A DNA stretch of 64,000 nucleotides from the NCBI GenBank assembly GCA_023251075.1, contig JAHEZM010000005.1, positions 24,753-88,752 on the forward strand. Direction: 5' to 3'. Shown here piece after piece: positions 1 to 16,018 of this stretch (positions are counted from its first letter, which is position 1; every line of letters begins with the position of its first letter). The translations under genes were made by a program, and so were the position numbers. The notes under the pieces were generated by a model. The model was not told where the DNA came from and did no database searches. It worked only from the letters and a program-made list of their open reading frames with translations. The stretch is from Flavobacteriales bacterium (GTDB lineage Bacteria; Bacteroidota; Bacteroidia; Flavobacteriales_C; GCA-002722245).

Positions 1-939
1 AAACTAGATATATATAAAGATCTTCTTTTAAAGAAGTATGACCAAAAATCAAGAGTGCGAGAAAAATTAAATCAATACATACAAGAAGTTTTAGATAAGG
101 TAAGTTCAGAATGGTTTATTGACCGTCCGGGAGAATCTGGGATAACAATTAATGTTGATTCAGAAGATCATGTTATTCATACATGGTTTAGTGGTATTGC
201 AGGTTATATTGCAGCCACTAAAGAATATGATGCAAAAAACGATAAAAAAGTATTTGAAGAATTTTGGTTGTCCAAGGATACTAAGTTGGTTCAGTTTTTA
301 GGGTTTGATTGCTCTTTTAGTCATGCTATTGTCTATCCTTCTTTACTTAGTAATCATGAGGAATTGGTCCAAGATAATTATGTGTTTACTAATGAATTTT
401 TAAAACTAGAAAATAAAGATTTTTCAACAAGTAGGGGGCATGCTATATGGGTAAATGATTTCTTAAATGAATACTCTTTAGATGCTGCTCGTTATTATTT
501 AGCTATTTATTCTCCTGAGGAAAAAGTATCGAATTTCAGTAAAAATGAGTTCATCCAATGGAATGAGGAATTTACAAAAGCAAAGGAAGATCTTTTAAAT
601 AATTTCATTGTAGTATCAGAAAAAAAGATAAGTTTTGATCTTGTTGTCAACAAGCATTCAGAAGCTCTGTCCAAGGTAATGGAAGCATGGAACCGATATT
701 CTTCAGTTCCTGAATATTCTATGAAAAAATTGGCCACTGAACTGTATGTTTTTCTGAAGTATATAAATCAATATTGCAACAATGATGAAACAGAAATGGT
801 GTTGTTATATAGTATTTTAGGAGAAGCTATACATCCTGATTTTTCATTAGAATTAAAATCTAAATATCAGTTTAAAAATCATAATTCTTTTGAGGTACTA
901 AAAGCGTTAGATTTTCATGAAAGCTATACAACCATCTGA
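1..939 (+). CDS. Class I aminoacyl-tRNA synthetase paralogue, MetRS-like (5' partial; frame is open to the window start)
   Basis: Clear MetRS homology: [10 protein letters not shown]...[29 protein letters not shown] matches E. coli MetG VWFDAPIGYM...[72 protein letters not shown] matches [37 protein letters not shown]. The KMSKS motif is degenerate (KDFSTS) and there is no long C-terminal tRNA-binding extension. Confidence 0.7.
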   Translation, partial: [312 protein letters not shown]

Positions 940-1064
940 AAATTATATTGAATAAAATGCTAAAAATTGTGTTTTAAAGACAAATGTCATGGGACCTTTA
1001 TTAGAAATACAAAAAGATAATTTTCCTGCAAATAATTTTTATTTCTGGTCGGCATTATAACAGT

Positions 1065-2141
1065 ATGGAAAACATAGATTTCGATGTAATAATAATTGGA
1101 GCGGGTATTTACGGAGCATCAATGGCGTATTCTTTATCTAAATATGGACTAAAAATAGTTTTAATAGAAAAGGAAACCCCTGGAGGTGCGGGATCAAGTA
1201 AATACTCAGGAGGAATTGTGCGGGTTTATGATGAAGATGAATCTTTAATTGCTAATAATCTTGCAGGACTTTATGAATTTGCCAATTGGAACTCTATAGG
1301 ATATCCAGGAAACTCTCCTTTTTTCCAAACGGGATTATTATATCTGCTAAAAAACGAGTCTGTTATTAGAGCAAAAGAAATTATAGAAAGGAGTTGTTCA
1401 GATGAAACAGAGTTAATCGAGTCGGAACAGCTTATTGATAATTTTCCCTTTTTAAAGAATCATACGGGTGATTATCTTTTATATGAAAAAAATAGTGGAT
1501 ACGCAGATGTACGGTTAACAATTAAAAATCTTATAGAGGGTTATAAAAGCAATGGTGGTTTATTGCTAGAAAATTGTAATGTTGAATCAGCAATAAATAA
1601 TGATGGAAATTGGAGCGTTAAAACCACATTTGCAAATCTTCATTCAAGTGTTGTTGTTTTCACAGTAGGGTCTTCCATCAGAAATTTTTTTCCTGATTTA
1701 GAAGTCTTTACTAAATCCGTACCTCTTACTTTAATAAGTGAGCGTGAAACCCCCTTCATATTACCGGTTATTGATGAAATTAATAATGTTTTCACCAGGC
1801 CTCTTAATGGTGAATTCTTTTTTTGTGGTACTCCTGGAAAACACATTAACGAATTTCCGGAACAGCTGCCAAAATATTCAGAAATAGAATTAGAGGATGT
1901 ATTATCAAAAATTTCTAAGGTCAATGGAAAAAATTATTCTGCAAATGTGATCAATGGCTTTAATGGCCATGATTCCTATACTAATGATTGTCGGCCTATT
2001 TATCAGTTTCACAAGATATTCAAAGGGGCATATTATCTATCTGGAATGTCAGGAAGAGGTTTTAAATCTTCACTTGCCGTAAGCAAAAAGGCAACAAAGG
2101 AAATAATAGAGTATTTACAAATATCTAATGAACTTAAGTGA
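1065..2141 (+). CDS. FAD-dependent oxidoreductase (DAO/glycine-sarcosine oxidase family)
   Basis: N-terminal Rossmann dinucleotide motif DVIIIGAGIYGASMAYSLSKYGLKIVLIEKE. Size of 358 aa is typical of the DAO family. Overlaps the next gene by 4 nt (ATGA), indicating operon coupling. Confidence 0.75.
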   Translation: MENIDFDVIIIGAGIYGASMAYSLSKYGLKIVLIEKETPGGAGSSKYSGGIVRVYDEDESLIANNLAGLYEFANWNSIGYPGNSPFFQTGLLYLLKNESVIRAKEIIERSCSDETELIESEQLIDNFPFLKNHTGDYLLYEKNSGYADVRLTIKNLIEGYKSNGGLLLENCNVESAINNDGNWSVKTTFANLHSSVVVFTVGSSIRNFFPDLEVFTKSVPLTLISERETPFILPVIDEINNVFTRPLNGEFFFCGTPGKHINEFPEQLPKYSEIELEDVLSKISKVNGKNYSANVINGFNGHDSYTNDCRPIYQFHKIFKGAYYLSGMSGRGFKSSLAVSKKATKEIIEYLQISNELK

Positions 2142-3115
2142 ACTCTATTTTTAAAATAGGAATGGTAGCGAGTATAAGCGATTTTACATCTGTTCATCGT
2201 GAAACTTTTAAAAATGCGGCAAGCTTATTTAGTGCATTGCATTTAAATATAGATAGTTCACGATCTCCTAGTTTATTATGGGAAGACGATTTTGCCAGTG
2301 AAATAGGGGGAATGAAAAGTGCTTTAAATTTAATTAAGCGTAAAGCAAATATAGTAATTGGTCATTTTGCTTCTTCGGCCGCCCTATCAGCATTAGAAAC
2401 ATATAATAATCAAATTCCTGTTCTATTACCTGCAGCAACTCTAGATAGAATAACTGAGAATCATTCCAATGCTTTTCGTTTAATAGGTAAAGACAGTGAC
2501 CTGATAGAATATCTATTTGCAGATATCAATCCCCAAAAAAACAGGATTCTTATTTGGGCAACCCATGATGGTTCTTTACATGGAAAAAATATTCAGCATT
2601 TCGCGAAGCTGTTTGCAGATAAATTTAATATCATCATAGCTACGGAATACTCTGAAAGTGTAAATTTTATATTATACTCTGGTTCTTTTTATAATAGTAT
2701 GGAGTTCTTGAGAAATTATAGTGGTGTTTCGTGTCCTATATTATTTACAGATGACGTAATTCATCCTAATATCGGTGATGAAATAGCTAAAAATAAGTTG
2801 GTTGATATTACAGCGTATGGATATTCATTAGATAAGAACCAGACTATGCGGGAATTATCTGATATTTATACAAGTCGATTTAATAAAGCTCCAGGAACTT
2901 ATTTTTTTGAAACTTATTCAGCTTTGCAAATCGCTTTGCAAATCGCTCTTATTTACAATAAAAAGCAACTCCTTTCTTCTGAAATAATAGAATTGCTACA
3001 ACACAACAGCTGGGATACTGCATTAGGAAAGATTAAATTTCAGAAGGGAGAAAATAATTTAGACCGCTATTCAAAATTTATTTTTAAAAACGGAAATCTA
3101 ATAGAAGAAAAATAA
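2138..3115 (+). CDS. Periplasmic-binding-protein type 1-like (LivJ-like) domain protein, no signal peptide
   Basis: IGMVASISD...ANIVIGHFASSAALSALETYNNQIPVLLPAATLDRIT...NAFRLIGKDSDLIEYL resembles the Peripla_BP_6/LivJ fold pattern. No signal peptide, so probably a cytoplasmic ligand-binding module. Confidence 0.4.
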   Translation: MNSIFKIGMVASISDFTSVHRETFKNAASLFSALHLNIDSSRSPSLLWEDDFASEIGGMKSALNLIKRKANIVIGHFASSAALSALETYNNQIPVLLPAATLDRITENHSNAFRLIGKDSDLIEYLFADINPQKNRILIWATHDGSLHGKNIQHFAKLFADKFNIIIATEYSESVNFILYSGSFYNSMEFLRNYSGVSCPILFTDDVIHPNIGDEIAKNKLVDITAYGYSLDKNQTMRELSDIYTSRFNKAPGTYFFETYSALQIALQIALIYNKKQLLSSEIIELLQHNSWDTALGKIKFQKGENNLDRYSKFIFKNGNLIEEK

Positions 3116-4081
3116 ATGGAAAATAAAATTGAAGATATTCTAGATAAAGAAATCGATAAACTAAGGCGCTTTAGTAATAAAATTAACCCGCAAAAAATTT
3201 ATGAACTACCCATTGAGCAGAGTAGGAAAATTGCTAAAGAAAGCATTTTGCCATTTACTTTAAAAAATGAAAAAAGCACTTCTTATGTTGAGCATGAATT
3301 ATTTTTTGGTAATGAAGAAGCTATTAAGATTAGGGTTTATTCTGCCGATAGAAAAGATTATCAAACCGGAATTGTTTTCTTTCATGGAGGTGGGTATGTA
3401 TTATATGATGTAGATGTTTATCACTCATTATGCGAATTTATTAGTGAAGCTTGTAATTCTAAGGTCATTTTTGTTGAATATAGAAAACCTCCTTACTATG
3501 AAATAGTAAATACTTATCAGGATTGTAAAAATACCTTGGATTGGGTTGTTTTGAATAAATTATTTTTAGGAATAGACAATATTGTTTTAATGGGAGATAG
3601 TGTCGGCGGTAATCTTGTTCTAAAAACTTTCCAAGAGTCGGAAAAAAATATCGATTTAATTGTTTTATGTTATCCGGTTCTTTCTTGGAATTTTACAAAT
3701 TTATCTTATCAAAAATATGGTGAAGGATATTTCTTAGACCAAAAGTTAATGGAGTGGTTTAAAAGAATTTCTTTTGGTCATTTAAATGATGATGAATTAA
3801 AAAAATATAACTTTACTTTTTTTAATGAAGAGATACCTAATTTGATTTTGATTTCGTCTGAATTTGATGTGCTTCGAGATGAATCATTTATATTTCAAAT
3901 GCAACTACAATCCCAAAATTCCAAATCAGTACATCTTCACTTTGAAAATATGGGTCATAACTTTCTATTGATGGCAGGGAGATTTAATTCAGCAAAAGAT
4001 GCACTCATAAAAATTTGTAACCAATTAAATATTCATATTAACCAATTAAATCATGAACGAAAAATTAAAAATCAAAATTGA
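3116..4081 (+). CDS. Alpha/beta-hydrolase fold-3 esterase/lipase (HSL family)
   Basis: HGGG oxyanion motif (VFFHGGGYVLYD) and GDSVGG nucleophile elbow. Immediately abuts the previous gene. Confidence 0.8.
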   Translation: MENKIEDILDKEIDKLRRFSNKINPQKIYELPIEQSRKIAKESILPFTLKNEKSTSYVEHELFFGNEEAIKIRVYSADRKDYQTGIVFFHGGGYVLYDVDVYHSLCEFISEACNSKVIFVEYRKPPYYEIVNTYQDCKNTLDWVVLNKLFLGIDNIVLMGDSVGGNLVLKTFQESEKNIDLIVLCYPVLSWNFTNLSYQKYGEGYFLDQKLMEWFKRISFGHLNDDELKKYNFTFFNEEIPNLILISSEFDVLRDESFIFQMQLQSQNSKSVHLHFENMGHNFLLMAGRFNSAKDALIKICNQLNIHINQLNHERKIKNQN

Positions 4082-4457
4082 GCATTATGAAAGTAAACTT
4101 TCATTTGAAGCCGATTCGTCGGATGTTTGGACTGCGGTTGACAATAAGGAAAATGTAATTGTTTTAGACGCAAGGTCGCCAAAAGCATATGAAAATGAAC
4201 ATATTGTGAATGCAATTAACATTCATCATAAACTAATGGATGAGAATACTACGAAGCATTTAGATAAAAATGCTCTTATTATTACTTATTGTGATGGTAT
4301 AGGATGTAATGCTTCTACAAAAGGCGCTTTGAAAATGGCCAAATTAGGGTTTGATGTAAAAGAGCTTTTAGGAGGTTTAGACTGGTGGAAAAGAGATGGG
4401 TATCCAACCCACATCTTGAGCACAAATAAAATTGCAGACCCTTCTTGTTGTATTTAA
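4053..4457 (+). CDS. Single-domain rhodanese-like sulfurtransferase
   Basis: Rhodanese active-site loop YCDGIGCNAS with catalytic Cys. Size is 134 aa. Confidence 0.7.
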   Translation: MNEKLKIKIEHYESKLSFEADSSDVWTAVDNKENVIVLDARSPKAYENEHIVNAINIHHKLMDENTTKHLDKNALIITYCDGIGCNASTKGALKMAKLGFDVKELLGGLDWWKRDGYPTHILSTNKIADPSCCI

Positions 4458-4463
4458 TATGAA

Positions 4464-4496
4464 TTGCCCACAGATCAAACTCTGTGGGCAATTTTT
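4464..4496 (+). terminator. Intrinsic terminator/attenuator-like hairpin between the rhodanese gene and the condensation-domain gene
   Basis: 11-bp perfect stem ttgcccacaga/tctgtgggcaa with loop tcaaac, followed by TTTTT. It ends 1 nt before the candidate ATG at 4498. Confidence 0.45.
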
Positions 4497-4497
4497 A

Positions 4498-6132
4498 ATG
4501 CCTTATTCGATGAACGAAATCAATGGATTTATTCATTTTCTTACTGAAAAGAAAATTGAATTACAGTGTAGTGAAGGACAATTGAAGATTTCCGCACCTA
4601 AAAATGTATTAACCAATGAAATCATTTCTGAAATACAGAAGAATAAAGCAAAGCTAATTGAGCTTTTAGTCTCCATCGAAAGCAAGGATCACAGACCTTT
4701 AATTCAGAAAATAGAAAAACAGGAAGGAATTTATAAAACTACCTATTCGCAAAAGGCTCAATGGGCAAAGTATAACTTTTCTTCCTTTTGGATTGCTGAA
4801 AATGGGTGCTTAATAAAGATTTTTAAAGAAATAAATCTTGATTTATTCAAACAAGCGTTATGGTTATTTGTTTTTAGGCATGATTGCCTTACCTCTCACT
4901 ATGAATTTACCGACGGAGATTTGGTTCAGGTTACTCAGGCTCAAAACCTACGAACCCCAGCGTTAAGGGTGTTAAAATTATCAAATGTTGCTGATATTTC
5001 AAGTTCCTCTAAGGAAATTTACCACAAAGAACTGAACACTTCTTTCGATTTAAATAAAGGTCCTTTATTTAGAGTAACAGTAGCTTCTTTTAATGAAGAG
5101 AATCACCATGTTTTTTATACTATTGATTCTAGCATTTATGATAGGATGTCTGAGCATATTATTATTAGTGAAATAGACGAAATATATGAATGTTTAAAAA
5201 ATAGAAAGCACATCAATTTGCCTGAAATTAATTTTCAATACCATGAATTTAGTGAATGGGAAGACACTTTGCTTAAAGGTAAATATGGAAATATTCTGAG
5301 AAATTATTGGAAGAAATATGTAAGTTCATTTAGGGAAGTAACCTATTTACCTACAGATTTTCCTTATGATTACCGCAAATCAAATTCAATGAATTATTTA
5401 GATGCATTTGAATTTGAAATTAAAAATTTTTGTAAACCAACTGCAATAGAGAAATTTGAATATATTTCCGGAACACGTTCTTCATTTAAATTTGTTTCAG
5501 GAGGCCTTTTTAAATTTACATTTTCTGACCAAAATATAATTCTACAGTTAAGAGATTTTTCCAAAGAAAATGCTATTTCCATGTATTCTATATTTCTTAG
5601 CGTATTCTATTTGTTATTTCACAAATTATCGAATCAAAAGGAAATTGTAATTGGAAATTGCGTTTCTTTAAAAGACGACCCTAAACTAAATCAAACAATA
5701 GGGTTTTTTACAAATATTATTTTTACTAAAGCAGAAGTAGACGAAAAAGAAGAATATTTATATTTTGTTAAACGGGTTATGAATGATTTCATAAATTGCT
5801 ATGAGCATAAAAATTATCCGTGGGAAAAAGTTCTTGAAGAAAGTAATAATGCTTACCATAAGTTATCCTTATTGTTCCTTGATTATTTAAATCTTGGTGA
5901 AAGGGAATCCGAAGAGGATAATGGGCGGTTAGAACATGAAGAGGGAGCCCCTGCTATATTTGATAACAGTTGTTTTATCCATGAATATAGAAATGCAATT
6001 CAGTTCCAGTGGATATATTCTAAACAATTATTTCATGAAGAAACGGTAAAAAACTTCATTGAAGAATATAAAAAAATACTTTTTACAGTGGTTAATAACC
6101 CTCAGAGCACAATTAAAAATATTCTACAATGA
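4498..6132 (+). CDS. Stand-alone NRPS-type condensation-domain protein with TubC-like N-terminal docking domain. The ORF track start 4432 lies inside the upstream hairpin; 4498 or 4510 is the likely start.
   Basis: The N-terminal ~60 aa (FLTEKKIELQCSEGQLKISAPKNVLTNEIISEIQKNKAKLIELL) match the TubC_N docking pattern. Condensation-domain core motifs are recognisable. C1 is SQKAQWAKY, C2 is FRHDCLTSHY, and C3 is HHVFYTIDSS (HH present, Asp spacing altered). C4 is QYHEFSEWE, C5 is IGFFTNIIFT, and C6 is HKNYPWE. Confidence 0.7.
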   Translation: MPYSMNEINGFIHFLTEKKIELQCSEGQLKISAPKNVLTNEIISEIQKNKAKLIELLVSIESKDHRPLIQKIEKQEGIYKTTYSQKAQWAKYNFSSFWIAENGCLIKIFKEINLDLFKQALWLFVFRHDCLTSHYEFTDGDLVQVTQAQNLRTPALRVLKLSNVADISSSSKEIYHKELNTSFDLNKGPLFRVTVASFNEENHHVFYTIDSSIYDRMSEHIIISEIDEIYECLKNRKHINLPEINFQYHEFSEWEDTLLKGKYGNILRNYWKKYVSSFREVTYLPTDFPYDYRKSNSMNYLDAFEFEIKNFCKPTAIEKFEYISGTRSSFKFVSGGLFKFTFSDQNIILQLRDFSKENAISMYSIFLSVFYLLFHKLSNQKEIVIGNCVSLKDDPKLNQTIGFFTNIIFTKAEVDEKEEYLYFVKRVMNDFINCYEHKNYPWEKVLEESNNAYHKLSLLFLDYLNLGERESEEDNGRLEHEEGAPAIFDNSCFIHEYRNAIQFQWIYSKQLFHEETVKNFIEEYKKILFTVVNNPQSTIKNILQ

Positions 6133-6154: not shown

Positions 6155-6886
6155 TCAGTTGTTTTTTAAAATCAATAATTCTGCATAATTCAATACTGTA
6201 TTAAAATGGCTTCCGCTACTTGTGTTTTGGCCGTGTAAACAGTAGGTATACAATTCAGGATCATCCATGATGGATAACTTATTTTGAGCCAATAAATGAT
6301 GTAATACAGGAGTATCTTCTTGTTTGTTCAAACTTGAATAAATTCCCATTTCAGATTTAAGGCACATTAAAGTTCCTTCCCATCCGTCATTGCGGGGGTT
6401 GGCCAGGTATCTTTTGCCAGTGCTTTTATCATAAATAATTAAACTGGCTAATGCACAGGCTGGTTTTTTTGAGAATTCAATAAAATTTTTCTGATTAAAC
6501 AATCGGTCTTTACTGTAAATATCATCGTCATCCCAAATACAAATGTATTCTCCTTGAACACTTTGCGTAGCAAGATTTCTTTTATCTCCTAAAGTAATGG
6601 GTTCTTTGGATTGTATTCGGTAGAAATAAATGTTTGATTCGCCTTTGTGAGTCACATCTGACTTACATTTCAATATATTGTCATCATTTTTTTGTACATC
6701 AATAAGTTCTATTTTATTAAAACTATTGTCCGAATTAACAAAGTCATTGGTTTCTTCGTCCTCAGCCATGTAAAAAATGTTGAGGTCTTTGTTCTCGTAA
6801 GTTTGTGCTTTAAAATAGGAGATAGAATCTTTTAAATAATTGACTCTTTGGTGTGTAATACAAACACAGGATATTTTTTCTTTCAT
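6155..6886 (-). CDS. Glycosyltransferase, GT2-like
   Basis: The N-terminus ISCVCITHQRVNYLKDSISYFKAQTYENKDLNIFYMAEDEE parallels the GT2 start (SVIIPT...NQTY...VVDDGS). An acidic DxD-type motif ICIWDDDDIYSKDRL is present. Confidence 0.55.
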   Translation of the reverse strand: MKEKISCVCITHQRVNYLKDSISYFKAQTYENKDLNIFYMAEDEETNDFVNSDNSFNKIELIDVQKNDDNILKCKSDVTHKGESNIYFYRIQSKEPITLGDKRNLATQSVQGEYICIWDDDDIYSKDRLFNQKNFIEFSKKPACALASLIIYDKSTGKRYLANPRNDGWEGTLMCLKSEMGIYSSLNKQEDTPVLHHLLAQNKLSIMDDPELYTYCLHGQNTSSGSHFNTVLNYAELLILKNN

Positions 6887-6893: not shown

Positions 6894-7946
6894 TTACATA
6901 TAGGTATTAATAAATTCTTCCGGGAAATTGAGGCTTTCGAATACTCTGTTTTCCTGATCTTTTAAAAATGGATTTTCCATCATTCCACTTAATACATAAA
7001 CAAATGGAAATTGATCGGGGTTGTCATCGAAAGGCACAAAAAATTGCAGATGAAGTTTAGAAGTGGATACATCTAAATATTGAATGAACATTTCTACATT
7101 TTCTTCGCTTCCTTCATGAATAAATTTGTAATAAAAGTAGTTGAGCTGATACCAATACAAGCGGAAATAATATTTTTCAAGCGCCTCATATTGGTTGATT
7201 TTCTGCAGATATGCTTTAATATCATCGAGAATAAAAAAAATACTTTTGATATGTTTTTCTGTACAGGCAGAAGTCATGGTGGATCCTTGCCGTTGAATAT
7301 AGGTATAGTAGTCTTCGCGAATTACTTTTATCTTTTTACAGCTGGATAGGCAACTTACATTTTGTGCGAGATCTTCAAAGAATACTTCCCCAGGGAATCT
7401 ACATTTACCATTAAGAAAAAGTTTTGCTGAATATATTTTATTGGCACAGGAAGGTAAAATTTTCATACAGAGAAATGACTTCATTATTTTGTCGGCAGAA
7501 TATATCCCTGCTTCAATACCCTTATCTATTCCATGATTTCTTTCTTTCTCAATATTTTCTTCGTAAGTGTTTACTATTTCTTTTGTAAACAGCAAAGCAT
7601 CTACCTCTTCTTCATTGGTAAGCTCCTTATATATAGAGGTCAATGCATTTTCAGGTATAGTATCATCGCTATCAATGAACCAGAAATATTTGCCTTGAGC
7701 AATTTCAATTCCTTTGTTGCGCGCAGTACCTTGCCCCAAGTTATTTTGCGAAATGTATTTAATGAAAGAATATTGCTGGTGAAATTTTAAAATTATTTTT
7801 TCTGAATCATCTGTACTTCCATCATTAATGAGAATTAATTCAAAATCAGTGAAACTTTGATGGATAATAGAATTTAAACAATTCTCTAAATACCTCTCCA
7901 CATTAAAAACCGGAATGATGATACTAAAAAATGGTAATGAATTCAT
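6894..7946 (-). CDS. Glycosyltransferase family 2
   Basis: Classic GT2 N-terminus FSIIIPVFNVERYLENCLNSIIHQSFTDFELILINDGSTDDS and WFIDSDDTI motif. Confidence 0.85.
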   Translation of the reverse strand: MNSLPFFSIIIPVFNVERYLENCLNSIIHQSFTDFELILINDGSTDDSEKIILKFHQQYSFIKYISQNNLGQGTARNKGIEIAQGKYFWFIDSDDTIPENALTSIYKELTNEEEVDALLFTKEIVNTYEENIEKERNHGIDKGIEAGIYSADKIMKSFLCMKILPSCANKIYSAKLFLNGKCRFPGEVFFEDLAQNVSCLSSCKKIKVIREDYYTYIQRQGSTMTSACTEKHIKSIFFILDDIKAYLQKINQYEALEKYYFRLYWYQLNYFYYKFIHEGSEENVEMFIQYLDVSTSKLHLQFFVPFDDNPDQFPFVYVLSGMMENPFLKDQENRVFESLNFPEEFINTYM

Positions 7947-8060: not shown

Positions 8061-9038
8061 ATGAATATTACCGATAAAAAATGGGTAGATGCCATCTACA
8101 AACCTCGCTGGATTCTTTTTACATGGAAGTATACTGATTGGAATGTTATCTATTTCAATTTTCTTTCTTCTTTATACAAAGAGTTAAATTCCAGAAAAGA
8201 AATTTCAAGTATTTACATTACCCGATTTCAGGTGGATGAAAATGAATTCAAGGTAAATATTGCTGTTAATACATCAATGTACCATGTTGAAGAGATTCGG
8301 AAATTTGTTTTTGAAGAGTTTGATAAATACAAGGGGTCAAGTTTTTTTGCGCTGGAGAGTAAATATGATCAGATAGAATTTAAAGATTATCATATTTTTT
8401 CTGGTTTAGGTGCGAGCAAATTATTATATGAAAGTATTTTACCCATTACTTCAAATTGTTTACTCTCTTTTATGGCTGAGTTCGGAGAAAATTTTGATTT
8501 AGAAACTGCTTTAGAAAAGTCGATTCCTATTACATTAGGTTTATTACATGCTGCCGGATTGGAGAAAGATCAAATGCATTTATTTTATGATTATTTTTTT
8601 AATCTTCAATTAAGGCATATTAATACGGTGGAAACCAATGATGAATTAAGAGATAATTATATTAATGAGGTAAGGAAGAATTATTTACTACAGAAAGATG
8701 CTTTTATAGGCATTAGCGATTATTTAAGTGATGCCTTACTAGAAAATGAAATGGTGGATGAAGATTGGATTAATGAATGGTTTGGGGAATGCAGAAAGAT
8801 TCGTGAGCAGGTAATTCATTTGCCTGAACATATGTATATAGCATCGTTTAATTTTCAACCTGATGAGGATAGTAAATTAGATTTATTGACTCAGAAAAAA
8901 TTCAATATTATACAAAGTCTTTTAAGCGAGGTTCATTGGCAAACAGGTATCACCTACGTTTATCACATGAATTTAATTTATGCTTTAAAAGAGGGTTTTA
9001 AATCTATTTTTGAAACTAAACAATATCAAAAATACTAA
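8061..9038 (+). CDS. Hypothetical protein. Weak resemblance to the lanthipeptide-dehydratase C-terminal (SpaB_C / thiopeptide-type bacteriocin biosynthesis) domain.
   Basis: A 325-aa ORF with no signal peptide. SIYITRFQVDENEFKVNIAV loosely resembles the wFFiRY.D.gpHLRLRl core of PF14028. It sits 12 nt upstream of the TolC-like gene. The family assignment is unverified. Confidence 0.3.
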   Translation: MNITDKKWVDAIYKPRWILFTWKYTDWNVIYFNFLSSLYKELNSRKEISSIYITRFQVDENEFKVNIAVNTSMYHVEEIRKFVFEEFDKYKGSSFFALESKYDQIEFKDYHIFSGLGASKLLYESILPITSNCLLSFMAEFGENFDLETALEKSIPITLGLLHAAGLEKDQMHLFYDYFFNLQLRHINTVETNDELRDNYINEVRKNYLLQKDAFIGISDYLSDALLENEMVDEDWINEWFGECRKIREQVIHLPEHMYIASFNFQPDEDSKLDLLTQKKFNIIQSLLSEVHWQTGITYVYHMNLIYALKEGFKSIFETKQYQKY

Positions 9039-9049: not shown

Positions 9050-10354
9050 ATGAAATCATATTTGTTTTTGGCAGTTATTGTAGCGTTTAATATCAGCTAT
9101 GCAGGCAACGATACGCTATCGCTGGAAAATGCGATTGAATTGGTTTTAAAAAACAACTACGATCTTCTGGCTACTAAAGCGAATGTTCAAATTGCAAAAA
9201 AAAATGCTACTTATGGTAATGCAGGAATGTTACCCAGTATAAATTTAAACTCATCTTCTTCCATAGCAAGTTACGATCGTCGCCAAAGACTGAGTGATAA
9301 TACAGAATTATATGGAAAAGGAGCCCCTTCTTCTATTATTATAGCTGGTGTTGGTTTTGGTTGGACAGTATTTGATGGCGGTGCAATGTTTGCAAAATAT
9401 AGAGAACTAAAGAACGAGCTTTCCTGGAATGAGGAAGCTTTCAAGTCAAGTCTTGAGTTGGTGGTGGATAGTGTAATGATTCAATATTATACGCTAGCAA
9501 AACAACAAAAAATAGTTTTTTATAAGCAAAAATTTATTGAAATGTATGAGGAGAGAATGCGTATTGCTGAATCGAAGTGGAATTTAGATCTATTATCAAA
9601 GAATGATTATTTACAGGCTAAGGCAGAATTGAATTGGCAAAAGATGCATTTCCTTTATGACGACAATATTCTAAAGGCGCAAAAGGTAAATATGAATAAA
9701 CTTTTATGTCGTGATTTAGAAATAGATTTTGTTGTAAGCGATGAATTTTCTGTTTCTTATAATCCGTCTTTCGAAGAGCTGAAAAAAACTGTTGTTTTAA
9801 ACAATCATTCTATTCGTTTGCAAGAATTAAATTTGGAGAAAGAAAAATTGATTGTAAAACAAGCTAATTCTTTAATGTATCCAAAAATATCTCTTTACAG
9901 CAATTATAACTTCTCTCAAAATAAAGCACAAGCTTCCTGGATTCAGTTAGATCAAACATTGGGCTTTAATGCCGGGGTTAATGCATCTTGGTACATTTAT
10001 AATGGAGGTAATGCAAGAAGACAAATTGCTAATTCCAAGATATTTTTAGATCGATCAAATTTGAAATTAGAATCAACAAAACTAGTGGTGGAGGCATCAT
10101 TGTTAAACGCATACAATTCTTATTTATCCAGTAAAGAGATCTTAAAAATGGCCGAAGAGAATTCGTTGATTGTAGAAGAACATCTCCATTCAATGATGGA
10201 AAGATTTAAATTAGGTCGTTGTATCTCGTTAGAGTTAATGCAAGCTCAGCAAACATATGAATTATCTCAAGTTCAGGTGATTGATAGTAAGTTTCGACTT
10301 AGAATTGCAGAATTAGAATTAATGCGTTTAAATGGTGAATTGGTGAAAATGTAA
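9050..10354 (+). CDS. TolC-family outer-membrane efflux protein
   Basis: Signal peptide followed by the typical OEP start LSLENAIELVLKNNYDLLATKANVQIAKKNATYG and a 434-aa repeated helical/barrel architecture. Confidence 0.8.
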   Translation: MKSYLFLAVIVAFNISYAGNDTLSLENAIELVLKNNYDLLATKANVQIAKKNATYGNAGMLPSINLNSSSSIASYDRRQRLSDNTELYGKGAPSSIIIAGVGFGWTVFDGGAMFAKYRELKNELSWNEEAFKSSLELVVDSVMIQYYTLAKQQKIVFYKQKFIEMYEERMRIAESKWNLDLLSKNDYLQAKAELNWQKMHFLYDDNILKAQKVNMNKLLCRDLEIDFVVSDEFSVSYNPSFEELKKTVVLNNHSIRLQELNLEKEKLIVKQANSLMYPKISLYSNYNFSQNKAQASWIQLDQTLGFNAGVNASWYIYNGGNARRQIANSKIFLDRSNLKLESTKLVVEASLLNAYNSYLSSKEILKMAEENSLIVEEHLHSMMERFKLGRCISLELMQAQQTYELSQVQVIDSKFRLRIAELELMRLNGELVKM

Positions 10355-10405
10355 TTTATTTTCTTTTCGCTGCCCTTAGATAAATAACCCTATCTTCGCG
10401 GCATT

Positions 10406-10843
10406 ATGAAAAGGATAAACGACTTCCGAAAACTCTTGGGTGTTGGCGCAAATGCTGATTTAGCAGAGCTTAAAGCCATTTACAGAAATTTCATGAAGGA
10501 GTTCCATCCCGATAAATTTCAGGAGGAAGAAGCCAAGTTAGAAGCAGAAAGCAAGAGTAAAGCAATTATCGAAGCCTATCATTTTTTAGTGAGTATTTCC
10601 CCCGAAACGCATGAACAGAATAAAGAAGCGTATACTAAAACTCTTACCACTTCTGTTATTGCTGATTTTGAATTTCAAAAATCGGTTTTAAAAATCACTT
10701 TTGTGGATGGAAGTATCTACGAATATTTTGGTGTTCCTAAAAACACCTTTGTGAAATTAATCAATGCCGATTCTCCGGGTAGATATGCTAAGCGACACGT
10801 TTATGATTCTTTTCCATTTAGAAATCTAAAGAAAACAGATTAG
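10406..10843 (+). CDS. J-domain (DnaJ-like) protein with C-terminal KTSC domain
   Basis: HPD motif in KAIYRNFMKEFHPDKF. The C-terminus VLKITFVDGSIYEYFGVPKNTFVKLINADSPGRYAKRHVYDSFPF matches the KTSC domain. Confidence 0.7.
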   Translation: MKRINDFRKLLGVGANADLAELKAIYRNFMKEFHPDKFQEEEAKLEAESKSKAIIEAYHFLVSISPETHEQNKEAYTKTLTTSVIADFEFQKSVLKITFVDGSIYEYFGVPKNTFVKLINADSPGRYAKRHVYDSFPFRNLKKTD

Positions 10844-10890
10844 TTTCTTGAACACGGATTATTTCTTTTTTCAGCAAATTGTTTTCCTGT

Positions 10891-10918
10891 ACCCAACCAA
10901 TGTTGTTTTCAAAACGTA
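10891..10918 (+). promoter_or_regulatory. ECF-sigma-type promoter ACCCAACC-N16-CGTA upstream of 10950
   Basis: gtACCCAACCaatgttgttttcaaaaCGTATTCTAtgg with a spacer of exactly 16 nt; it lies 32 nt upstream of the ATG. Confidence 0.6.
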
Positions 10919-10949
10919 TTCTATGGTTAAACCATAAAACTACTAGGTT

Positions 10950-12800
10950 ATGAATACTAAAACAGGTGATCAAAATATTTTGACTTTTGTATTTGCACTG
11001 GTGTTATCAGTGTTTTCAACCTTTGTGTTGAATGCTCAAAATGTAATTTCTCGAGATAAATTCAACGACAAAGCTTTATTGTATACCGCAGCTTATACTG
11101 CAGGAACAACAGTTACCACGAGCAATGATGCACAAGATTTTATTACCGCACCTTCGAGTGTGGCAATGAATTATTCAATTGCTAAAAAAGTGGGGAATGT
11201 TGCCAATAGCTATTTTGCATCGATGATGAACTATGTGAAATACCCAAAAGATTGGTCGTTTAATGTCGATAAAATTATCCTTAAACATAAAGGGGGATCA
11301 AACAAGCTGGCCATTAAAATTAAGTTGTATGAAGACAATGACATTTCGGGTGGTAATACTGCCGGAGATGAGCAATGGATGAGCACTTCGGTAACTGCAG
11401 GTCAATTGGGATGGACTACCTCTGAGTTTAATTTGGTTGATTTTACCCGTGTGGGCTCTACAGGAGCAGTGAATAGTAGTATTGATTTAAATCGTTTAAG
11501 GGCATGGGAAATTTATGTGGAGGATGTATCGGGAAAAGGAGATACCTCAGTAATAAAATTTGATGAATTATTAATTCACACCAATTACACTTCACCTACT
11601 TCTGGTGATGCTTACGTAACAGGTGCTTTTACACAATTGTGGAATGATGTAGGTTGTAAATGTGGTTTGTGGAATCAGGCGAGATGGGAGCAGGAATTTC
11701 AGAAAATGAAAGACATGAAGATGACTTCTTTTGTAATACAATACGGAGTATATGATATTTATTCATGGTATTCTCCAACTACAGTTCCGGGAATTACTCA
11801 GGGCAATACTTTCAACACCATTAACACGATGGTTAAAGCGGCTGAAAATGTAGGAATAGGATTGTATATTGGTTTGTATTATACCCCTTCGAAATGGGAT
11901 AATGCCAGTAAAACCAATGCAGCTACCTATTCGAATTTGTTGGTTACACAAAAACATGTGATTGATGACATTCATAATTTATTTGGTTCAAGCACTGCCT
12001 TTAAAGGTTGGTATATTCCGGAAGAAATTGATGATTATTCCTGGCAATCGGGCAACGCTAAAACCTATTTATTTCAATGGGTGCAAGATGTTGCTGCCTA
12101 TGCGCATACAAAAAATGCGCAAAAACCAGTAATGATTTCCCCTTTCTTTAATTTGTGGATGCCTGCCGATTGGCTAAAGCAATGGTATGAAGATTTTTTT
12201 ATTGCTGCTCCCGATTTAGATTTAGTAATTCCGCAGGATGGAGTGGGTATTACTCTCAAAAATGTGAATTATGATGTACCCCTTTATCTTTCAAAAATTA
12301 AAGAAGCTTGCGATGCACATCAGGTACAATTTGGTGTAAATATTGAATCGTTTCAACAAACTTCGGGATGGCCGATCGACAATGGTAATTTTGCGGCTAC
12401 TTCTGCTACTATCGATAGATATAAAGCACAATTGTGGGAAGCTGGATTACACAACCCGGTAGAAATTTTAACTTTCGAATGGGCCTATATGGAACCAGGA
12501 AATGGCGCCGCTGCAGATGATTTATACAACAATTATTTATTGTATGTGACTTCCATTACAACTAATGTTGCAGAAACTATTGATAACGTTATTCAGGTTT
12601 ATCCTAATCCGGCTAATCAGCACCTCTATTTCAATCAAAAAATTTCATCGGTGAAGTTATTTAGTGTTGAAGGAAAATTATTACTGACACAAAATAATAT
12701 TCAATCGTTAGATGTTGCTCTGTTGCCCGCAGCAGTTTATACGCTGCAAGTTCAGCAAGCCAATGGTGCACTACAAATTTTAAAAGTGGTGAAAGACTAA
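10950..12800 (+). CDS. Secreted TIM-barrel glycoside-hydrolase-like protein (DUF4434-like), T9SS type-A cargo
   Basis: Signal peptide and C-terminal Por_Secre_tail (VYPNPANQHLYFN...LQILKVVKD). The central region CKCGLWNQARWEQEFQKMKDMKMTSFVIQY resembles the DUF4434/GH-like family. Confidence 0.5.
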   Translation: MNTKTGDQNILTFVFALVLSVFSTFVLNAQNVISRDKFNDKALLYTAAYTAGTTVTTSNDAQDFITAPSSVAMNYSIAKKVGNVANSYFASMMNYVKYPKDWSFNVDKIILKHKGGSNKLAIKIKLYEDNDISGGNTAGDEQWMSTSVTAGQLGWTTSEFNLVDFTRVGSTGAVNSSIDLNRLRAWEIYVEDVSGKGDTSVIKFDELLIHTNYTSPTSGDAYVTGAFTQLWNDVGCKCGLWNQARWEQEFQKMKDMKMTSFVIQYGVYDIYSWYSPTTVPGITQGNTFNTINTMVKAAENVGIGLYIGLYYTPSKWDNASKTNAATYSNLLVTQKHVIDDIHNLFGSSTAFKGWYIPEEIDDYSWQSGNAKTYLFQWVQDVAAYAHTKNAQKPVMISPFFNLWMPADWLKQWYEDFFIAAPDLDLVIPQDGVGITLKNVNYDVPLYLSKIKEACDAHQVQFGVNIESFQQTSGWPIDNGNFAATSATIDRYKAQLWEAGLHNPVEILTFEWAYMEPGNGAAADDLYNNYLLYVTSITTNVAETIDNVIQVYPNPANQHLYFNQKISSVKLFSVEGKLLLTQNNIQSLDVALLPAAVYTLQVQQANGALQILKVVKD

Positions 12801-12809
12801 CCCCATAAA

Positions 12810-12858
12810 TTCAAGAAAGAAGGAGATTGATTTATATCCTTCTTTCTTGAATTTTTTG
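12810..12858 (+). terminator. Rho-independent terminator
   Basis: 14-bp perfect stem ttcaagaaagaagg/ccttctttcttgaa followed by TTTTTT. Confidence 0.7.
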
Positions 12859-12862
12859 ACTT

Positions 12863-12890
12863 ACCCAACCTCTTTCCTTTTTGCTCCGTA
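12863..12890 (+). promoter_or_regulatory. ECF-sigma-type promoter upstream of 12934
   Basis: ttACCCAACCtctttcctttttgctcCGTATTCTTAAG, spacer 16 nt. Confidence 0.6.
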
Positions 12891-12933
12891 TTCTTAAGTT
12901 ACGAGGCTTCTGTTCAAATTAATTCTTATTACT

Positions 12934-14736
12934 ATGAAAGCGAAAAAAATCATTCGTATAGTATTGTTGGCATGTATTCAATCGCAATTTTTATTTGCTC
13001 AATTGATACCCGATTGGAGAAGAATAGATTGGTCGGCGGCAGGCTACGAAGGCGAAATTCCATGCTATACCAATTTAAGAGATGCTGTAGTAGAATTTGG
13101 TATGGACAATACAGGACTTACCGATAATGCTAAAAAAATTAACGATGCTATTAAATTAATTAACCCAGGTGAAGTACTTTATTTTCCTAATGGAACTTAC
13201 TTAATAAAAACACAAATTAATTTGAAATCGAATGTGGTGATTAGGGGAGAATCGGTTACAGGAACTTTATTAAAATTCACTTTTACCCAAGATTTAGATT
13301 GTTTTTCATTGGTAGGAAAATCAACACAAAATGTTACAACAATTACCGACCCAAAAACGAAAGATTCATATACTGTTGTGGTAGCCAATACAACAGGTTT
13401 AGCAGTAGGTCAATTATTGGAAATTGAACAGGAAAATGATACTGCTTTGCATTTCGGTCATAGTTGGAATAATGCCGATTGGGCACAATGTTTAAAAGGT
13501 CAGCTGGTTAAAATTACTGCGGTAGATCTTCTCACAAAAACACTCACTTTCGATAGGCCTCTAAGTATTGATTATGATAAAAAATACAAATTCAGAGTGC
13601 ATGTTCTGGATCCAATAAAACAAGTTGGAATTGAAAATTTACACATGATTAGAACCGATAAAACGGGAGGCTATAATGGAAATAATATCATGATGATTTA
13701 TGCACAAAATTGTTGGGTGAAAGGAGTGCATAGTGAATTTACTGCGCGTTATCATTTTAGGTTAGACAGATCCACCAATCTTGCAATTCGTGATAGTTAT
13801 ATTGAAAATGCTTATTACTGGGGAGCAGGTGGTGCTGCCTATGGTGTGATGTGTGCCGATCATACCTGTAACTCTTTAGTGGAGAATAATATTTTTCGCA
13901 TGCTTCGCCATTCATTGATTGTGAAAGAAGGCGCAAATTCTAATGTGTATGCTTACAATTATGTTTATCAAAGTAAATGGGATGGTACTGATTTTCCTGC
14001 CGATATTTCTTTACATGGACACTATGCTTTTGAAAATTTATTTGAAGGAAATGTGGTGCGTAGAGGAACTATTTCTGATAGCTGGGGACCTACCGGACCA
14101 GGCAATACTTTTTTGAGAAATAGAGTTGAAGGCTTTAAAAATTTATGGATACAAGATCTTTCTCATTACCAAAATTTTATTGCCAATGAATTTACTTTTG
14201 TAGGTACTAAAAATAAAAATCCCGGTATTGAAAATGATCACGATAACTCGGGTGTTAAGGGAATTATAAGAAGAGAAAACAGAAATGTGGTAGGTGTTGA
14301 TACCCTTACTCAATATGAAGTTCCGGCCTCTTATTATTTGAATGCTAAGCCCAATTTTTTTGGTAGTATGCCGTGGCCTAATATTGGAAAAGGAACTACT
14401 TATGGTACGGGTATGAATCCGGCCAAATTGCGATGGCTTACCGATAGTTTAAATCCAATTCCTGAATGGAACAATTGTGTAATTACATCAATGCAAACAG
14501 CAAAATTAAGTGGAGTTGATTTTTATCCTAATCCCACCAATCACGTATTTACAGTGCATGTAGAGAATCAATCGTTAATTAATGTGTGGGTTTATGATGC
14601 TTTAGGGAAGGAAGTATTTTGTACTTCAGCAAATGCTAATATTTCGTTTGGCGAAAATTTAGCGCCTGGTATTTACTGGGTAAAAATTCAACAAGAATCA
14701 AATGCCTCCTTCACTTATAAAGCCATACGATTATGA
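12934..14736 (+). CDS. Right-handed beta-helix (pectate-lyase superfamily) protein, T9SS type-A cargo
   Basis: Signal peptide. NPGEVLYFPNGTYLI matches the Pectate_lyase_3 motif. The C-terminal CTD is FYPNPTNHVFTVH...YKAIRL. Confidence 0.65.
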   Translation: MKAKKIIRIVLLACIQSQFLFAQLIPDWRRIDWSAAGYEGEIPCYTNLRDAVVEFGMDNTGLTDNAKKINDAIKLINPGEVLYFPNGTYLIKTQINLKSNVVIRGESVTGTLLKFTFTQDLDCFSLVGKSTQNVTTITDPKTKDSYTVVVANTTGLAVGQLLEIEQENDTALHFGHSWNNADWAQCLKGQLVKITAVDLLTKTLTFDRPLSIDYDKKYKFRVHVLDPIKQVGIENLHMIRTDKTGGYNGNNIMMIYAQNCWVKGVHSEFTARYHFRLDRSTNLAIRDSYIENAYYWGAGGAAYGVMCADHTCNSLVENNIFRMLRHSLIVKEGANSNVYAYNYVYQSKWDGTDFPADISLHGHYAFENLFEGNVVRRGTISDSWGPTGPGNTFLRNRVEGFKNLWIQDLSHYQNFIANEFTFVGTKNKNPGIENDHDNSGVKGIIRRENRNVVGVDTLTQYEVPASYYLNAKPNFFGSMPWPNIGKGTTYGTGMNPAKLRWLTDSLNPIPEWNNCVITSMQTAKLSGVDFYPNPTNHVFTVHVENQSLINVWVYDALGKEVFCTSANANISFGENLAPGIYWVKIQQESNASFTYKAIRL

Positions 14737-15836
14737 GAACTAAATTAATTTCTTTATTCATTTTTATTTTTTCACAACATTTTTTGTTGGGTCAGCAAAT
14801 CATTGATCTTACACGACTTTATGGCGTAACTATCGATGATGTTTCTAATGTTTCGGCTATTAAAAAATCTTTAGCTAAGCATTGTAAAAAAATGACTGCA
14901 AGAATTGTGTTCGATGAATTTGTGCCCGCAACTGATTATGTAGAAGCAGTAGATTCTATTCACGATGTTGCATTTATTTTGGGGGAAATTTTAGATAGTT
15001 ATTATGTGGATGCTGTTTCTGTAAATGAATATGCGGCACGCACCACAGAGTATTTAGATGCTTTTGAAGATAAAGTAGATATTTGGGAAATTGGAAATGA
15101 AATCAATGGCGAGTGGGTGGGCAATCCTTCTGATGTGGTGGCTAAAATTACCGACGCCTATCATCAGGTAAAACAAAGAGGAAAAAAGGCTGAGCTCACT
15201 TTGTATTATAATTCTGATTGTTTTGATAATGCTGCCAATGAAATGTTTACCTGGACAAAAGCCAATGTTCCCAATGAATTGAAACAAGGCTTAGATTATG
15301 TTTTAGTGAGTTATTATGAAGACGATTGTAATTTATTTCAACCCAATTGGCAAGAAGTTTTTGATAGTTTACATGTTTTATTTCCCAATTCTAAAATTGG
15401 AATGGGTGAGTGTGGTACCGATACAGTGATTAAAAAAGCTGGTTTTATTGATCGATATTACAACATGAATATTTCTACTCCTAATTATGTGGGTGGATAT
15501 TTTTGGTGGTATTATGTTCACGATGCGGTGCCTTACACCCAACCGTTATGGAATGAAATTAATAATCAATTGTGTTCGAATCAAACCAACTCTGCTGTAG
15601 AATTGTTTGAAGGGGAAGTTTCTATTTACAATAACACAAATTCCGCTTCTTTTATTTTTAAAGCCTCTGATAATAGTTCTTATACTCTTAATGTTTATAA
15701 TGCTTTAGGAGAAAAGATAGAGCAAGCGAGTGCAGTAAATTCTTTACAATTTGGCAGCAATTTTTCATCGGGAATTTATTTTGTAACAGTAGTAAATAGT
15801 TCCAATCAATCAACAGTTTTTTCAGTGGTTAAATAG
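14733..15836 (+). CDS. Clan GH-A-like glycoside hydrolase, T9SS type-A cargo
   Basis: Signal peptide. A DIWEIGNEINGEW-type catalytic NE motif. C-terminal CTD IYNNTNSASFIFKA...STVFSVVK. A 4-nt overlap with the previous gene indicates an operon. Confidence 0.45.
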   Translation: MRTKLISLFIFIFSQHFLLGQQIIDLTRLYGVTIDDVSNVSAIKKSLAKHCKKMTARIVFDEFVPATDYVEAVDSIHDVAFILGEILDSYYVDAVSVNEYAARTTEYLDAFEDKVDIWEIGNEINGEWVGNPSDVVAKITDAYHQVKQRGKKAELTLYYNSDCFDNAANEMFTWTKANVPNELKQGLDYVLVSYYEDDCNLFQPNWQEVFDSLHVLFPNSKIGMGECGTDTVIKKAGFIDRYYNMNISTPNYVGGYFWWYYVHDAVPYTQPLWNEINNQLCSNQTNSAVELFEGEVSIYNNTNSASFIFKASDNSSYTLNVYNALGEKIEQASAVNSLQFGSNFSSGIYFVTVVNSSNQSTVFSVVK

Positions 15837-15856
15837 TAGTTTTTTAAAGTTGGGAG

Positions 15857-15887
15857 GCGCCCCGTAATCTTACGGGGCGCTTTTTTT
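15857..15887 (+). terminator. Rho-independent terminator
   Basis: ggcgccccgtaaTCttacggggcgc followed by TTTTTTT. Confidence 0.8.
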
Positions 15888-15889
15888 AC

Positions 15890-15917
15890 ACCCAACCTCC
15901 ATGAATTTTGTAACGTA
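15890..15917 (+). promoter_or_regulatory. ECF-sigma-type promoter upstream of 16019
   Basis: acACCCAACCtccatgaattttgtaaCGTACTCTTATG, spacer 16 nt. The leader is about 100 nt. Confidence 0.55.
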
Positions 15918-16018
15918 CTCTTATGTAGAGGGGGAATTGTACGGGCAGTTTTATTTTTCCTTATCACCAACAAAACTTAACTAAACGGGAGGAGATGTTT
16001 TACTTCTAAAATTTAGTT

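Follow-up and report, generated by a model that had tools for sequence, protein, structure and literature searches.

What does a protein related to methionyl-tRNA synthetase (MetRS) do at the head of a run of genes whose products resemble enzymes of small-molecule tailoring? The question is raised by one end of an AT-rich stretch of DNA (31-39% G+C) of 64,000 nt, hereafter the window, which spans positions 24,753-88,752 of contig JAHEZM010000005.1 from a Flavobacteriales bacterium. Six co-directional genes on the + strand occupy window positions 1-6132. An original prediction made from the letters had listed them as a MetRS-like paralogue, a flavin-dependent oxidase, a protein resembling periplasmic binding proteins (PBP), an esterase, a rhodanese and a stand-alone condensation domain. 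All of these, including the MetRS-family identity of the first open reading frame (ORF), were recovered in place through Pfam and NCBIfam matches. The same prediction proposed an uncharacterised, non-housekeeping pathway for an amino-acid-containing glycoconjugate, lipid or peptide. A biosynthetic operon is indeed what we find; its enzyme family is a known one, the hydrazine synthetases, and its outcome would be an N-N bond in place of a glycoconjugate or lipid. Specifically, window positions 1-4457 appear to be the downstream two-thirds of a cupin/MetRS-like cassette for hydrazine (N-N bond) formation in a Bacteroidota genome, a reading to which we assign a probability of about 0.88. The identification follows from the gene set, which joins a MetRS-like protein, a cupin, an N-monooxygenase and a flavin oxidase.

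The hydrazine synthetase family was first described in 2018. Its members, among them Spb40, PyrN, Tri28, AzsN and FuzE/G, combine a cupin with a MetRS-like part (PMC8664883, PMC12376268), and these two halves can be fused or encoded by separate genes (PMC8664883; FuzD-G, PMC13149037). The family is estimated to have more than 1,200 members (PMC13149037). The MetRS-like part activates an amino acid by adenylation and then links it, as an ester, to an N-hydroxylated amine supplied by a flavin monooxygenase (PMC8664883). A zinc cupin then rearranges the unstable ester to create the N-N bond, and a flavin oxidase (Spb39/Tri27/Apy10) releases the hydrazino acid by cleaving a C-N bond (PMC8664883, PMC10445470, PMC12376268, PMC11705231). 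We found no Bacteroidota member in those published hydrazine synthetase tables that were searched. The enzyme family is already known, and what is new here is the Bacteroidota locus and three conserved accessory genes.

Only part of the MetRS-like gene lies within the window (Table 1). The original prediction had pointed to the upstream sequence as the means of completing it, and a protein collection match that is 100% identical to the fragment encoded by positions 1..939 provides the full-length protein, hereafter P0001. This protein of 502 amino acids (aa) begins with MAKYIVTIAPPTPNGNLHLGH and carries an intact HIGH motif (HLGH) that is encoded outside the window. P0001 also keeps the four Zn-knuckle cysteines and the Asp that binds the alpha-amino group, and has no fused N-terminal domain. 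At E <1e-5, it has 146 relatives of 470-550 aa in Bacteroidota, Proteobacteria, Cyanobacteria and Actinomycetota.

Both sequence and predicted structure place P0001 close to the hydrazine synthetase domain of PyrN (structure 9L8V). A phmmer comparison of the two gives E 1e-31, and a profile of the P0001 family (alignment A1) matches the same structure over positions 11-495, almost its full length, at E 1e-75. The AlphaFold model of P0001 (predicted local distance difference test, pLDDT, 90; predicted template modelling score, pTM, 0.92) superimposes best on PyrN, with template modelling (TM) scores of 0.80-0.82, compared to 0.78 for the MetRS of Pyrococcus abyssi and 0.72 for that of Escherichia coli. 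In addition, P0001 and PyrN have in common the N-terminal signature PTPNGxLHLGHLSGPFLxAD. Genuine MetRS enzymes read PYANG where these two proteins read PTPNG, and TDEHG where P0001 reads DDHQ.

The most conservative alternative is that P0001 is the housekeeping MetRS of this organism, or a second functional copy, that merely lies beside biosynthetic genes. Its best Pfam and NCBIfam families are indeed MetRS families, its top PDB sequence match is the P. abyssi MetRS (E 2e-55), the model retains a helical fold for the C-terminal domain, and NCBI names its orthologues 'methionine--tRNA ligase'. However, P0001 misses all curated MetRS cutoffs (TIGR00398, 201.9 vs 336; NF001100, 232.6 vs 587; NF008859, 488.6 vs 553), and no anticodon-domain Pfam family matches it at E values up to 5. 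The positions that form the methionine pocket are altered, with T-P for Y-A and Q for G, and the fold is nearer to that of the PyrN domain.

Two features that had been taken as marks of a non-canonical enzyme proved uninformative in this comparison. The KMSKS loop does read KDFSTS (nt 415-432), as first described, and the second Lys is lost. Nevertheless, the P. abyssi protein, a genuine MetRS, reads KFSTSR at this site, and PyrN reads KFSTGR. The form xFSTSR occurs in all 84 loci compared (one reads LSTSR), the family consensus is KFSTSR, and both HLGH and F331-S-T-S-R335 are invariant in alignment A1. Because the family and the P. abyssi enzyme agree in this way, loss of the second Lys reflects an archaeal-type MetRS ancestry rather than a loss of function. 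What is specific to the clade of P0001 is DFSTSR, in which the first Lys of KMSKS is replaced by Asp. Likewise, the missing C-terminal extension is not diagnostic, since many real bacterial MetRS proteins have no appended domain.

The genomic context of the gene provides evidence of a different kind. The same locus is present on Logan contig SRR14366772, which was found through the condensation-fold protein of the window (P0121). The genes tabulated for it agree one by one with those of the window, with products of 502, 358, 317, 321, 134, 540, 243, 350, 325 and 434 aa and onwards, and extend the locus upstream through a cupin, an aminotransferase, an N-monooxygenase, a small protein and an AMP-binding ligase (Table 1). 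An exact 41-nt DNA search of the Joint Genome Institute (JGI) metagenomes gave no match.

Related loci were collected by scanning one genome per species, which returned 565 relatives, of which 80 loci were kept; genes were then counted by tblastn over 84 loci that span several phyla. An N-monooxygenase is encoded in 76 of the 84 and a cupin in 73, followed by the class-III aminotransferase (52), the DAO-type oxidase (51), the LivJ-like PBP (22), the rhodanese (21) and the esterase (11). In three neighbourhood look-ups among the relatives, the MetRS-like gene was each time accompanied by genes for a small Cupin_2 protein, an N-monooxygenase of the Lys/Orn type, an oxidase of the DAO type and a Peripla_BP_6 protein, and often also by class-III aminotransferase, AMP-ligase, GNAT and nonribosomal peptide synthetase (NRPS) genes. 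The best match in the genome scan comes from Puia (50% identity). In a Cytophagales locus (L009), the gene order equals that of the window and its upstream extension: N-monooxygenase, aminotransferase, cupin, MetRS-like protein, DAO-type oxidase, PBP, esterase and rhodanese.

Orthologous cassettes are also carried by plasmids. The PLSDB record AP028980.1, plasmid pXT29 (28.9 kb) of Xenorhabdus sp. TCT-1 (locus L086), contains a whole 13-gene orthologous cassette that runs from the MetRS-like gene to a flavin adenine dinucleotide (FAD) monooxygenase and includes oxidase, LivJ-like, hydrolase, rhodanese, pvdA-like and ectB genes. This cassette adjoins a Tn3 transposase and a recombinase, and therefore behaves as a mobile gene cluster; other orthologous cassettes reside on Ralstonia megaplasmids. 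Such a setting counts against a housekeeping MetRS gene, as do the overlap of the gene with a cupin gene and its cupin and N-monooxygenase partners in 73-76 of 84 related loci. A housekeeping function for P0001 is therefore highly improbable in our judgement.

Paralogues of aminoacyl-tRNA synthetases in gene clusters are often resistance genes, and P0001 might accordingly be a self-resistance copy of MetRS that guards the producer against a MetRS-inhibiting product of the cluster. The intact HIGH motif and Zn knuckle fit this idea. Such a copy, however, must bind both methionine and tRNA-Met, and neither the pocket nor the anticodon-domain sequence is conserved in P0001. The hydrazine synthetase mechanism accounts for the strict association with cupin and N-monooxygenase genes, whereas resistance does not, and the points made against a housekeeping enzyme apply here equally. 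We give self-resistance the barest of chances. Rather, the MetRS-like gene is predicted from these comparisons to encode a class I aminoacyl-tRNA synthetase paralogue outside translation, one that joins an amino acid to an acceptor other than tRNA, as the original prediction had supposed.

Hydrazine synthetases have eight pocket positions that relate to the amino acid substrate (PMC12376268), and we read these positions in a single alignment that included every locus. In those columns, 18 loci reproduce the published code for glycine, TPDQWMNH, exactly, which validates the mapping. P0001 reads TPDQWGCH and thus equals the glycine code at six of eight positions; the same code is found in 19 further loci from Bacteroidota and Proteobacteria, and NPDSWGCH is found in 33 loci, mainly from Streptomyces. 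The two differences from the glycine code, M to G and N to C, enlarge the pocket and therefore favour a substrate larger than glycine, so that the amino acid used by P0001 is probably not glycine. For comparison, Spb40 and AzsN (glycine) carry TPDQWMNH, and PyrN (glutamate) gives TPVQMANR when the corresponding positions are read from its alignment with profile A1. The code TPDQWGCH was absent from the literature searched, which did not include Matsuda et al. 2024, a study that reportedly sets 401 pocket codes against their substrates.

If the enzymes act as their homologues do, a pathway of six steps can be proposed. First, the upstream class-III aminotransferase would supply a diamino acid or a diamine, for which L-2,4-diaminobutyrate (DABA) is the likeliest candidate, as suggested by the orthologue in the Cytophagales locus L009, which scores above the NCBIfam cutoff for diaminobutyrate--2-oxoglutarate transaminase (690.9 vs 671 bits). 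Second, the Lys/Orn-type flavin N-monooxygenase would hydroxylate the terminal amine of this compound. The hydroxylated amine is probably N4-hydroxy-DABA, because the L009 aminotransferase passes the DABA cutoff and the pXT29 orthologue is annotated as ectB. Third, the MetRS-like protein would, without tRNA, adenylate an alpha-amino acid and transfer it to the N-hydroxyl oxygen, as PyrN and Spb40 do, to yield an unstable O-aminoacyl-hydroxylamine. Fourth, the adjacent 128-aa cupin would rearrange this ester to a hydrazine, a reaction known from its homologues.

In the fifth step, the DAO-type oxidase would oxidise the C-N bond to release a free alpha-hydrazino acid and aspartate semialdehyde, by analogy with Spb39 and Apy10, and the aminotransferase could recycle the latter. 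The nearest solved structures of the oxidase are N-methyltryptophan oxidase, sarcosine oxidase and dimethylglycine dehydrogenase. These relatives oxidise secondary amines, which fits Spb39-like C-N cleavage, and the protein is thus presumed to be an oxidase of the Spb39/Tri27/Apy10 type that frees the hydrazino acid. Finally, loading of the hydrazino acid onto a carrier for further assembly is probably the task of the AMP-ligase and the 82-aa protein, which resemble the loading pair Tri29/Tri30 (PMC10445470).

The characterised systems most like this one are PyrN (pyrazomycin) and Spb40 (s56-p1), which have the same MetRS-like fold, the PTPNGxLHLGHLSGPFL signature and xFST(S/G)R in place of KMSKS, as well as cupin, flavin N-monooxygenase and oxidase partners (PMC8664883). 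They differ in that both are cupin-MetRS-like didomain proteins that use lysine as the amine donor in actinomycete hosts, whereas the cupin is a separate 128-aa gene here, the donor is likely DABA and the host belongs to Bacteroidota. Split cassettes with a stand-alone MetRS-like protein plus a cupin, an N-monooxygenase and a flavin oxidoreductase in an operon are represented by RHS1 of Rhodococcus jostii, FuzD/E/F/G of Microbispora, Afn8/Afn9 (albofungin) and Ral1-Ral2 of Ralstonia (PMC8664883, PMC13149037, PMC11705231). These differ in their accessory genes, since LivJ-like, Abhydrolase_3 and rhodanese genes occur in the present locus. For the amine donor, a parallel is offered by Apy9/Apy10/Apy11 (actinopyridazinone), in which the hydrazine synthetase uses N4-hydroxy-L-DABA and L-Ala, and a DABA-type aminotransferase and an N-monooxygenase accompany the synthetase and a Spb39-like oxidase (PMC11705231). 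However, that cluster is a Streptomyces polyketide synthase (PKS)-NRPS cluster, and the likeness noted here concerns the gene set.

The original prediction had instead compared P0001 with MshC and BshC of low-molecular-weight thiol synthesis. The analogy holds to the extent that an aminoacyl-tRNA synthetase-derived enzyme (MshC) or an ATP-dependent ligase joins an amino acid to a small molecule without tRNA. It fails in parentage and chemistry: MshC is derived from cysteinyl-tRNA synthetase (CysRS) and acylates a sugar amine, whereas the parent of P0001 is MetRS, the acceptor would be an N-hydroxyl oxygen, and a second enzyme would turn the ester into an N-N bond. Matches to models of the CysRS catalytic domain are only weak (PF01406, E 0.009 for the fragment; TIGR00435 cysS, 21 bits vs a cutoff of 340) and fall well short of the scores obtained with MetRS models.

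Three proteins encoded between the oxidase and the end of the cassette are not part of the steps outlined above. The PBP-like protein itself has no Pfam match, matches an NCBIfam LivJ-type family at E 1e-12, and was assigned to the LivJ fold with a profile built from locus-derived homologues, as a word-indexed homologue search gave only the query itself. It starts at the mature N-terminus and therefore has no signal peptide, which predicts a cytoplasmic location. Of the 22 loci with a gene for it, 20 have that gene immediately after the oxidase gene. The esterase retains its HGGG and GDSVG motifs and the Asp and His, and keeps the same gene order in nine of its 11 loci. The rhodanese resembles BH2092, a protein of unknown function (E 2e-45), and belongs to a family in which the CxGxGCN loop (nt 4290-4310) is invariant and a Cys-(Gly)-Cys pair at the C-terminus (nt 4443-4454; alignment A3) is conserved. 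Every cassette that encodes it encodes the DABA-type class-III aminotransferase as well (21 of 21 loci).

The order of oxidase, LivJ-like, esterase and rhodanese genes is kept in Bacteroidota and in Gamma-, Beta- and Alphaproteobacteria. The literature searched contained no paper linking a rhodanese with hydrazine synthetases, nor any in which LivJ-like, esterase and rhodanese genes stand alongside them. A bold proposal is that the four-gene block marks an undescribed branch of hydrazine metabolism, in which these accessory proteins would process or chaperone a hydrazine intermediate, for example through sulfur transfer by the rhodanese or deprotection by the esterase, and which would lead to a new class of N-N (possibly N-N/S) products, also made by Bacteroidota. 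We regard this as doubtful at present and offer it tentatively.

Several observations weigh against assigning hydrazine formation to this locus. Adenylation by P0001 is an assumption, since its clade lacks the first as well as the second Lys of the KMSKS loop, and the hydrazine synthetase activity of P0001 and of the other Bacteroidota members is a prediction. The upstream genes are represented by a gene table with Pfam labels rather than by DNA, and the proposed amine donor is deduced from an orthologue (56%-class) of a different organism. The 64-kb window, to which this search was confined, contains no further metG gene. The LivJ-like, esterase and rhodanese proteins are conserved accessories that have no place in the known pathway.

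The cupins supply a further point of this kind. Those of the TPDQWGCH clade (loci L001, L003, L005, L007, L009, L010 and others, with genes near 9600-9990) read H-x-N...E...H in place of the HxH or DxH of other hydrazine synthetase cupins. Among solved structures, they are closest to plu4264 of Photorhabdus (4MV2, E 1e-28), which has no assigned function, and the cupin of RHS1 (5UQP) is not among the 44 structure matches, at E values up to 1, of the nearest cupin relatives. The cupins of Pantoea and Xenorhabdus were also seen to carry a fused N-terminal domain that resembles a carrier protein.

The arrangement of the cassette and of the genes around it is summarised in Table 1. The claim that the operon is tightly packed with 4-nt overlaps did not survive inspection. 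The sole candidate lies between the oxidase and PBP genes and is conditional on a GTG start at position 2138, with the public gene call for the PBP-like protein beginning at ATG 2162. Elsewhere, a 126-nt gap separates the MetRS-like gene from the oxidase gene, and the esterase and rhodanese genes overlap by 29 nt. The gap at 939-1065 was considered as a possible structured RNA and rejected (z -0.6). A scan for sigma-70 promoters gave fewer matches than shuffled sequence, and that consensus does not apply to Bacteroidota.

Table 1. Genes and other features of the predicted hydrazine-forming cassette and its flanks, with window coordinates where the feature lies in the window.
Feature	Position	Strand	Evidence
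AMP-binding ligase, 547 aa (cut by locus end)	upstream of window		Logan gene table
82-aa protein	upstream of window, after AMP-binding gene		Logan gene table
Lys_Orn_oxgnase N-monooxygenase, 432 aa	upstream of window, after 82-aa gene		Logan gene table
Aminotran_3 class-III aminotransferase, 466 aa	upstream of window, between N-monooxygenase and cupin		Logan gene table
Cupin_2 protein, 128 aa	directly upstream, 8-nt overlap with MetRS-like gene		Logan gene table
MetRS-like predicted hydrazine synthetase subunit, C-terminal 312 codons (residues 191-502)	1..939	+	PF09334, E 6e-35
Substrate-pocket stretch, 4/8 positions: W252 (184-186), G255 (193-195), C294 (310-312), H298 (322-324)	181..324	+	
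KMSKS-equivalent loop, K-D-F-S-T-S-R	415..435	+	KDFSTS at nt 415-432
DAO-family FAD-dependent amine oxidase	1065..2141	+	PF01266, E 5e-35
LivJ/LIVBP-fold ligand-binding (PBP-like) protein	2138..3115 (alternative start ATG 2162)	+	family profile vs LivJ structures, E 5e-31
Abhydrolase_3 esterase, hormone-sensitive-lipase-type alpha/beta hydrolase	3116..4081	+	E 3e-36
Single-domain rhodanese	4053..4457	+	E 9e-16
Terminator-like 14-bp hairpin and UUUUU	4461..4499	+	dG -22.1 kcal/mol, z -5.6
TubC_N docking and condensation-fold protein P0121, 540 aa	4510..6132 (alternative start 4432)	+	PF00668, E 4e-52; TubC_N, E 2e-12
Two GT2 glycosyltransferase genes	6155..6886 and 6894..7946	-	direct match
Distant Lant_dehydr_C (SpaB_C)-like ORF	8061..9038	+	via relatives
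Outer-membrane efflux protein (OEP/TolC family)	9050..10354	+	PF02321, E 1e-43

The sixth gene of the + strand run raises the possibility of another kind of chemistry. Its product was described as a stand-alone NRPS-type condensation domain, and the condensation fold is clear (Table 1). In addition, there is a Lant_dehydr_C-like gene 2 kb downstream, and LanB enzymes are known to use aminoacyl-tRNA. The MetRS-like, condensation-like and SpaB_C-like proteins might therefore form a tRNA- or carrier-dependent peptide-tailoring system, either of the LanB or peptide aminoacyl-tRNA ligase (PEARL) type or through NRPS-like amide ligation, in place of N-N chemistry. However, the catalytic His is missing from the condensation-like protein: the HHxxxDG motif, read as HHSISDG in TycC and HHIVSDG in Txo1, is replaced by DSSIYDR (nt 5125-5145). 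The gene, which most likely starts at ATG 4510, is also set off from the rhodanese stop codon by a hairpin that none of 200 shuffled sequences could match in folding. This hairpin looks like an intrinsic terminator, and was missed by a scan for consensus terminators.

Comparative analysis likewise separates this protein from the cassette. The sole close homologue (P0122, 35% identity, positions 10001-11728 of locus L085) reads DMSVSEG at the motif, and belongs to an NRPS locus that has no hydrazine synthetase cassette within 10 kb on either side and that contains two Lant_dehydr_C-like genes related to the ORF at 8061-9038. This ORF has no direct Pfam match at E values up to 5; it shares 25% identity (E 5e-17) with a protein annotated as Lant_dehydr_C, and nine of 30 relatives match PF14028 (best 1.5e-40). 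The domain type that it resembles is the C-terminal (elimination) one of Lan enzymes and not the N-terminal type that uses tRNA. Neither this gene nor the condensation-like gene is conserved in the other hydrazine synthetase loci of the 84-locus comparison. Peptide tailoring by the three proteins together is therefore improbable, and the hydrazine-forming cassette is the better description of the genes that precede the hairpin.

The missing His, the hairpin and the occurrence of the homologue in a locus that lacks the cassette together indicate a separate or late module, and suggest that the condensation-like protein should not be counted in the hydrazine cassette. The GT2 genes were also considered as cassette members and rejected, as they have no homologues in related loci. 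Both flanking GT2 genes and the TolC-like exporter were confirmed and the SpaB_C-like protein more weakly, through its relatives; nothing was found to indicate that the GT2 enzymes modify the hydrazine product. The condensation-like, GT2, SpaB_C-like and TolC-like genes probably constitute a neighbouring or late-stage module. The His-less condensation-fold proteins of the window and of L085 both adjoin Lant_dehydr_C-like genes, and the two kinds of protein may be functionally paired.

Other features of the window lie beyond this region. A small gene for a DnaJ (J-domain)-KTSC fusion (10406-10843) directly follows the TolC-like gene and occupies the same place on the Logan contig. Genes for type IX secretion system (T9SS) cargo with Por_Secre_tail or CHU_C tails are dense, at 10950-19582, 22925-27688, 28871-30124 and 37805-43676 among other places, with more at 49834-51198, 53993-57607 and 60981-62381; they include PKD/Ig-repeat proteins of 1118-1587 aa, a GH18 protein and a DUF4434 protein. 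The many cargo genes identify the DNA as that of a Bacteroidota member. On the - strand, five successive genes (31113-37803; 202, 340, 572, 628 and 472 aa) have no Pfam match and are bounded by a T9SS-tailed protein at one end and a ROK kinase at the other. Also on the - strand, at 19583-22076, Kazal-type inhibitor repeats and a BFD-like [2Fe-2S] motif are combined in one protein (21423-22076), whose gene lies upstream of those for an extracytoplasmic function (ECF) sigma factor (20778-21347) and a 390-aa unknown protein. The group may represent an unusual anti-sigma arrangement.

The naming of cassette enzymes in public databases deserves comment. The NCBIfam model NF008859 is an equivalog for 'methionine--tRNA ligase' with a cutoff of 553 bits, and MetRS-like cassette proteins from Pantoea (668), Cronobacter (671) and Noviherbaspirillum (558) pass it. 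The orthologues on pXT29 and on the Ralstonia megaplasmids are annotated as methionine--tRNA ligase or metG. The use of this name for hydrazine-cassette enzymes is probably a systematic error, and such misnaming, in NF008859 and in many GenBank records, hides biosynthetic clusters and inflates counts of aminoacyl-tRNA synthetases.

Bonds between two nitrogen atoms are rare in biology, and they are the basis of bioactive compounds such as hydrazines, diazo compounds, pyrazoles and triazenes. With the locus described here, the cupin/MetRS-like machinery predicted to form such bonds is now placed in Bacteroidota.

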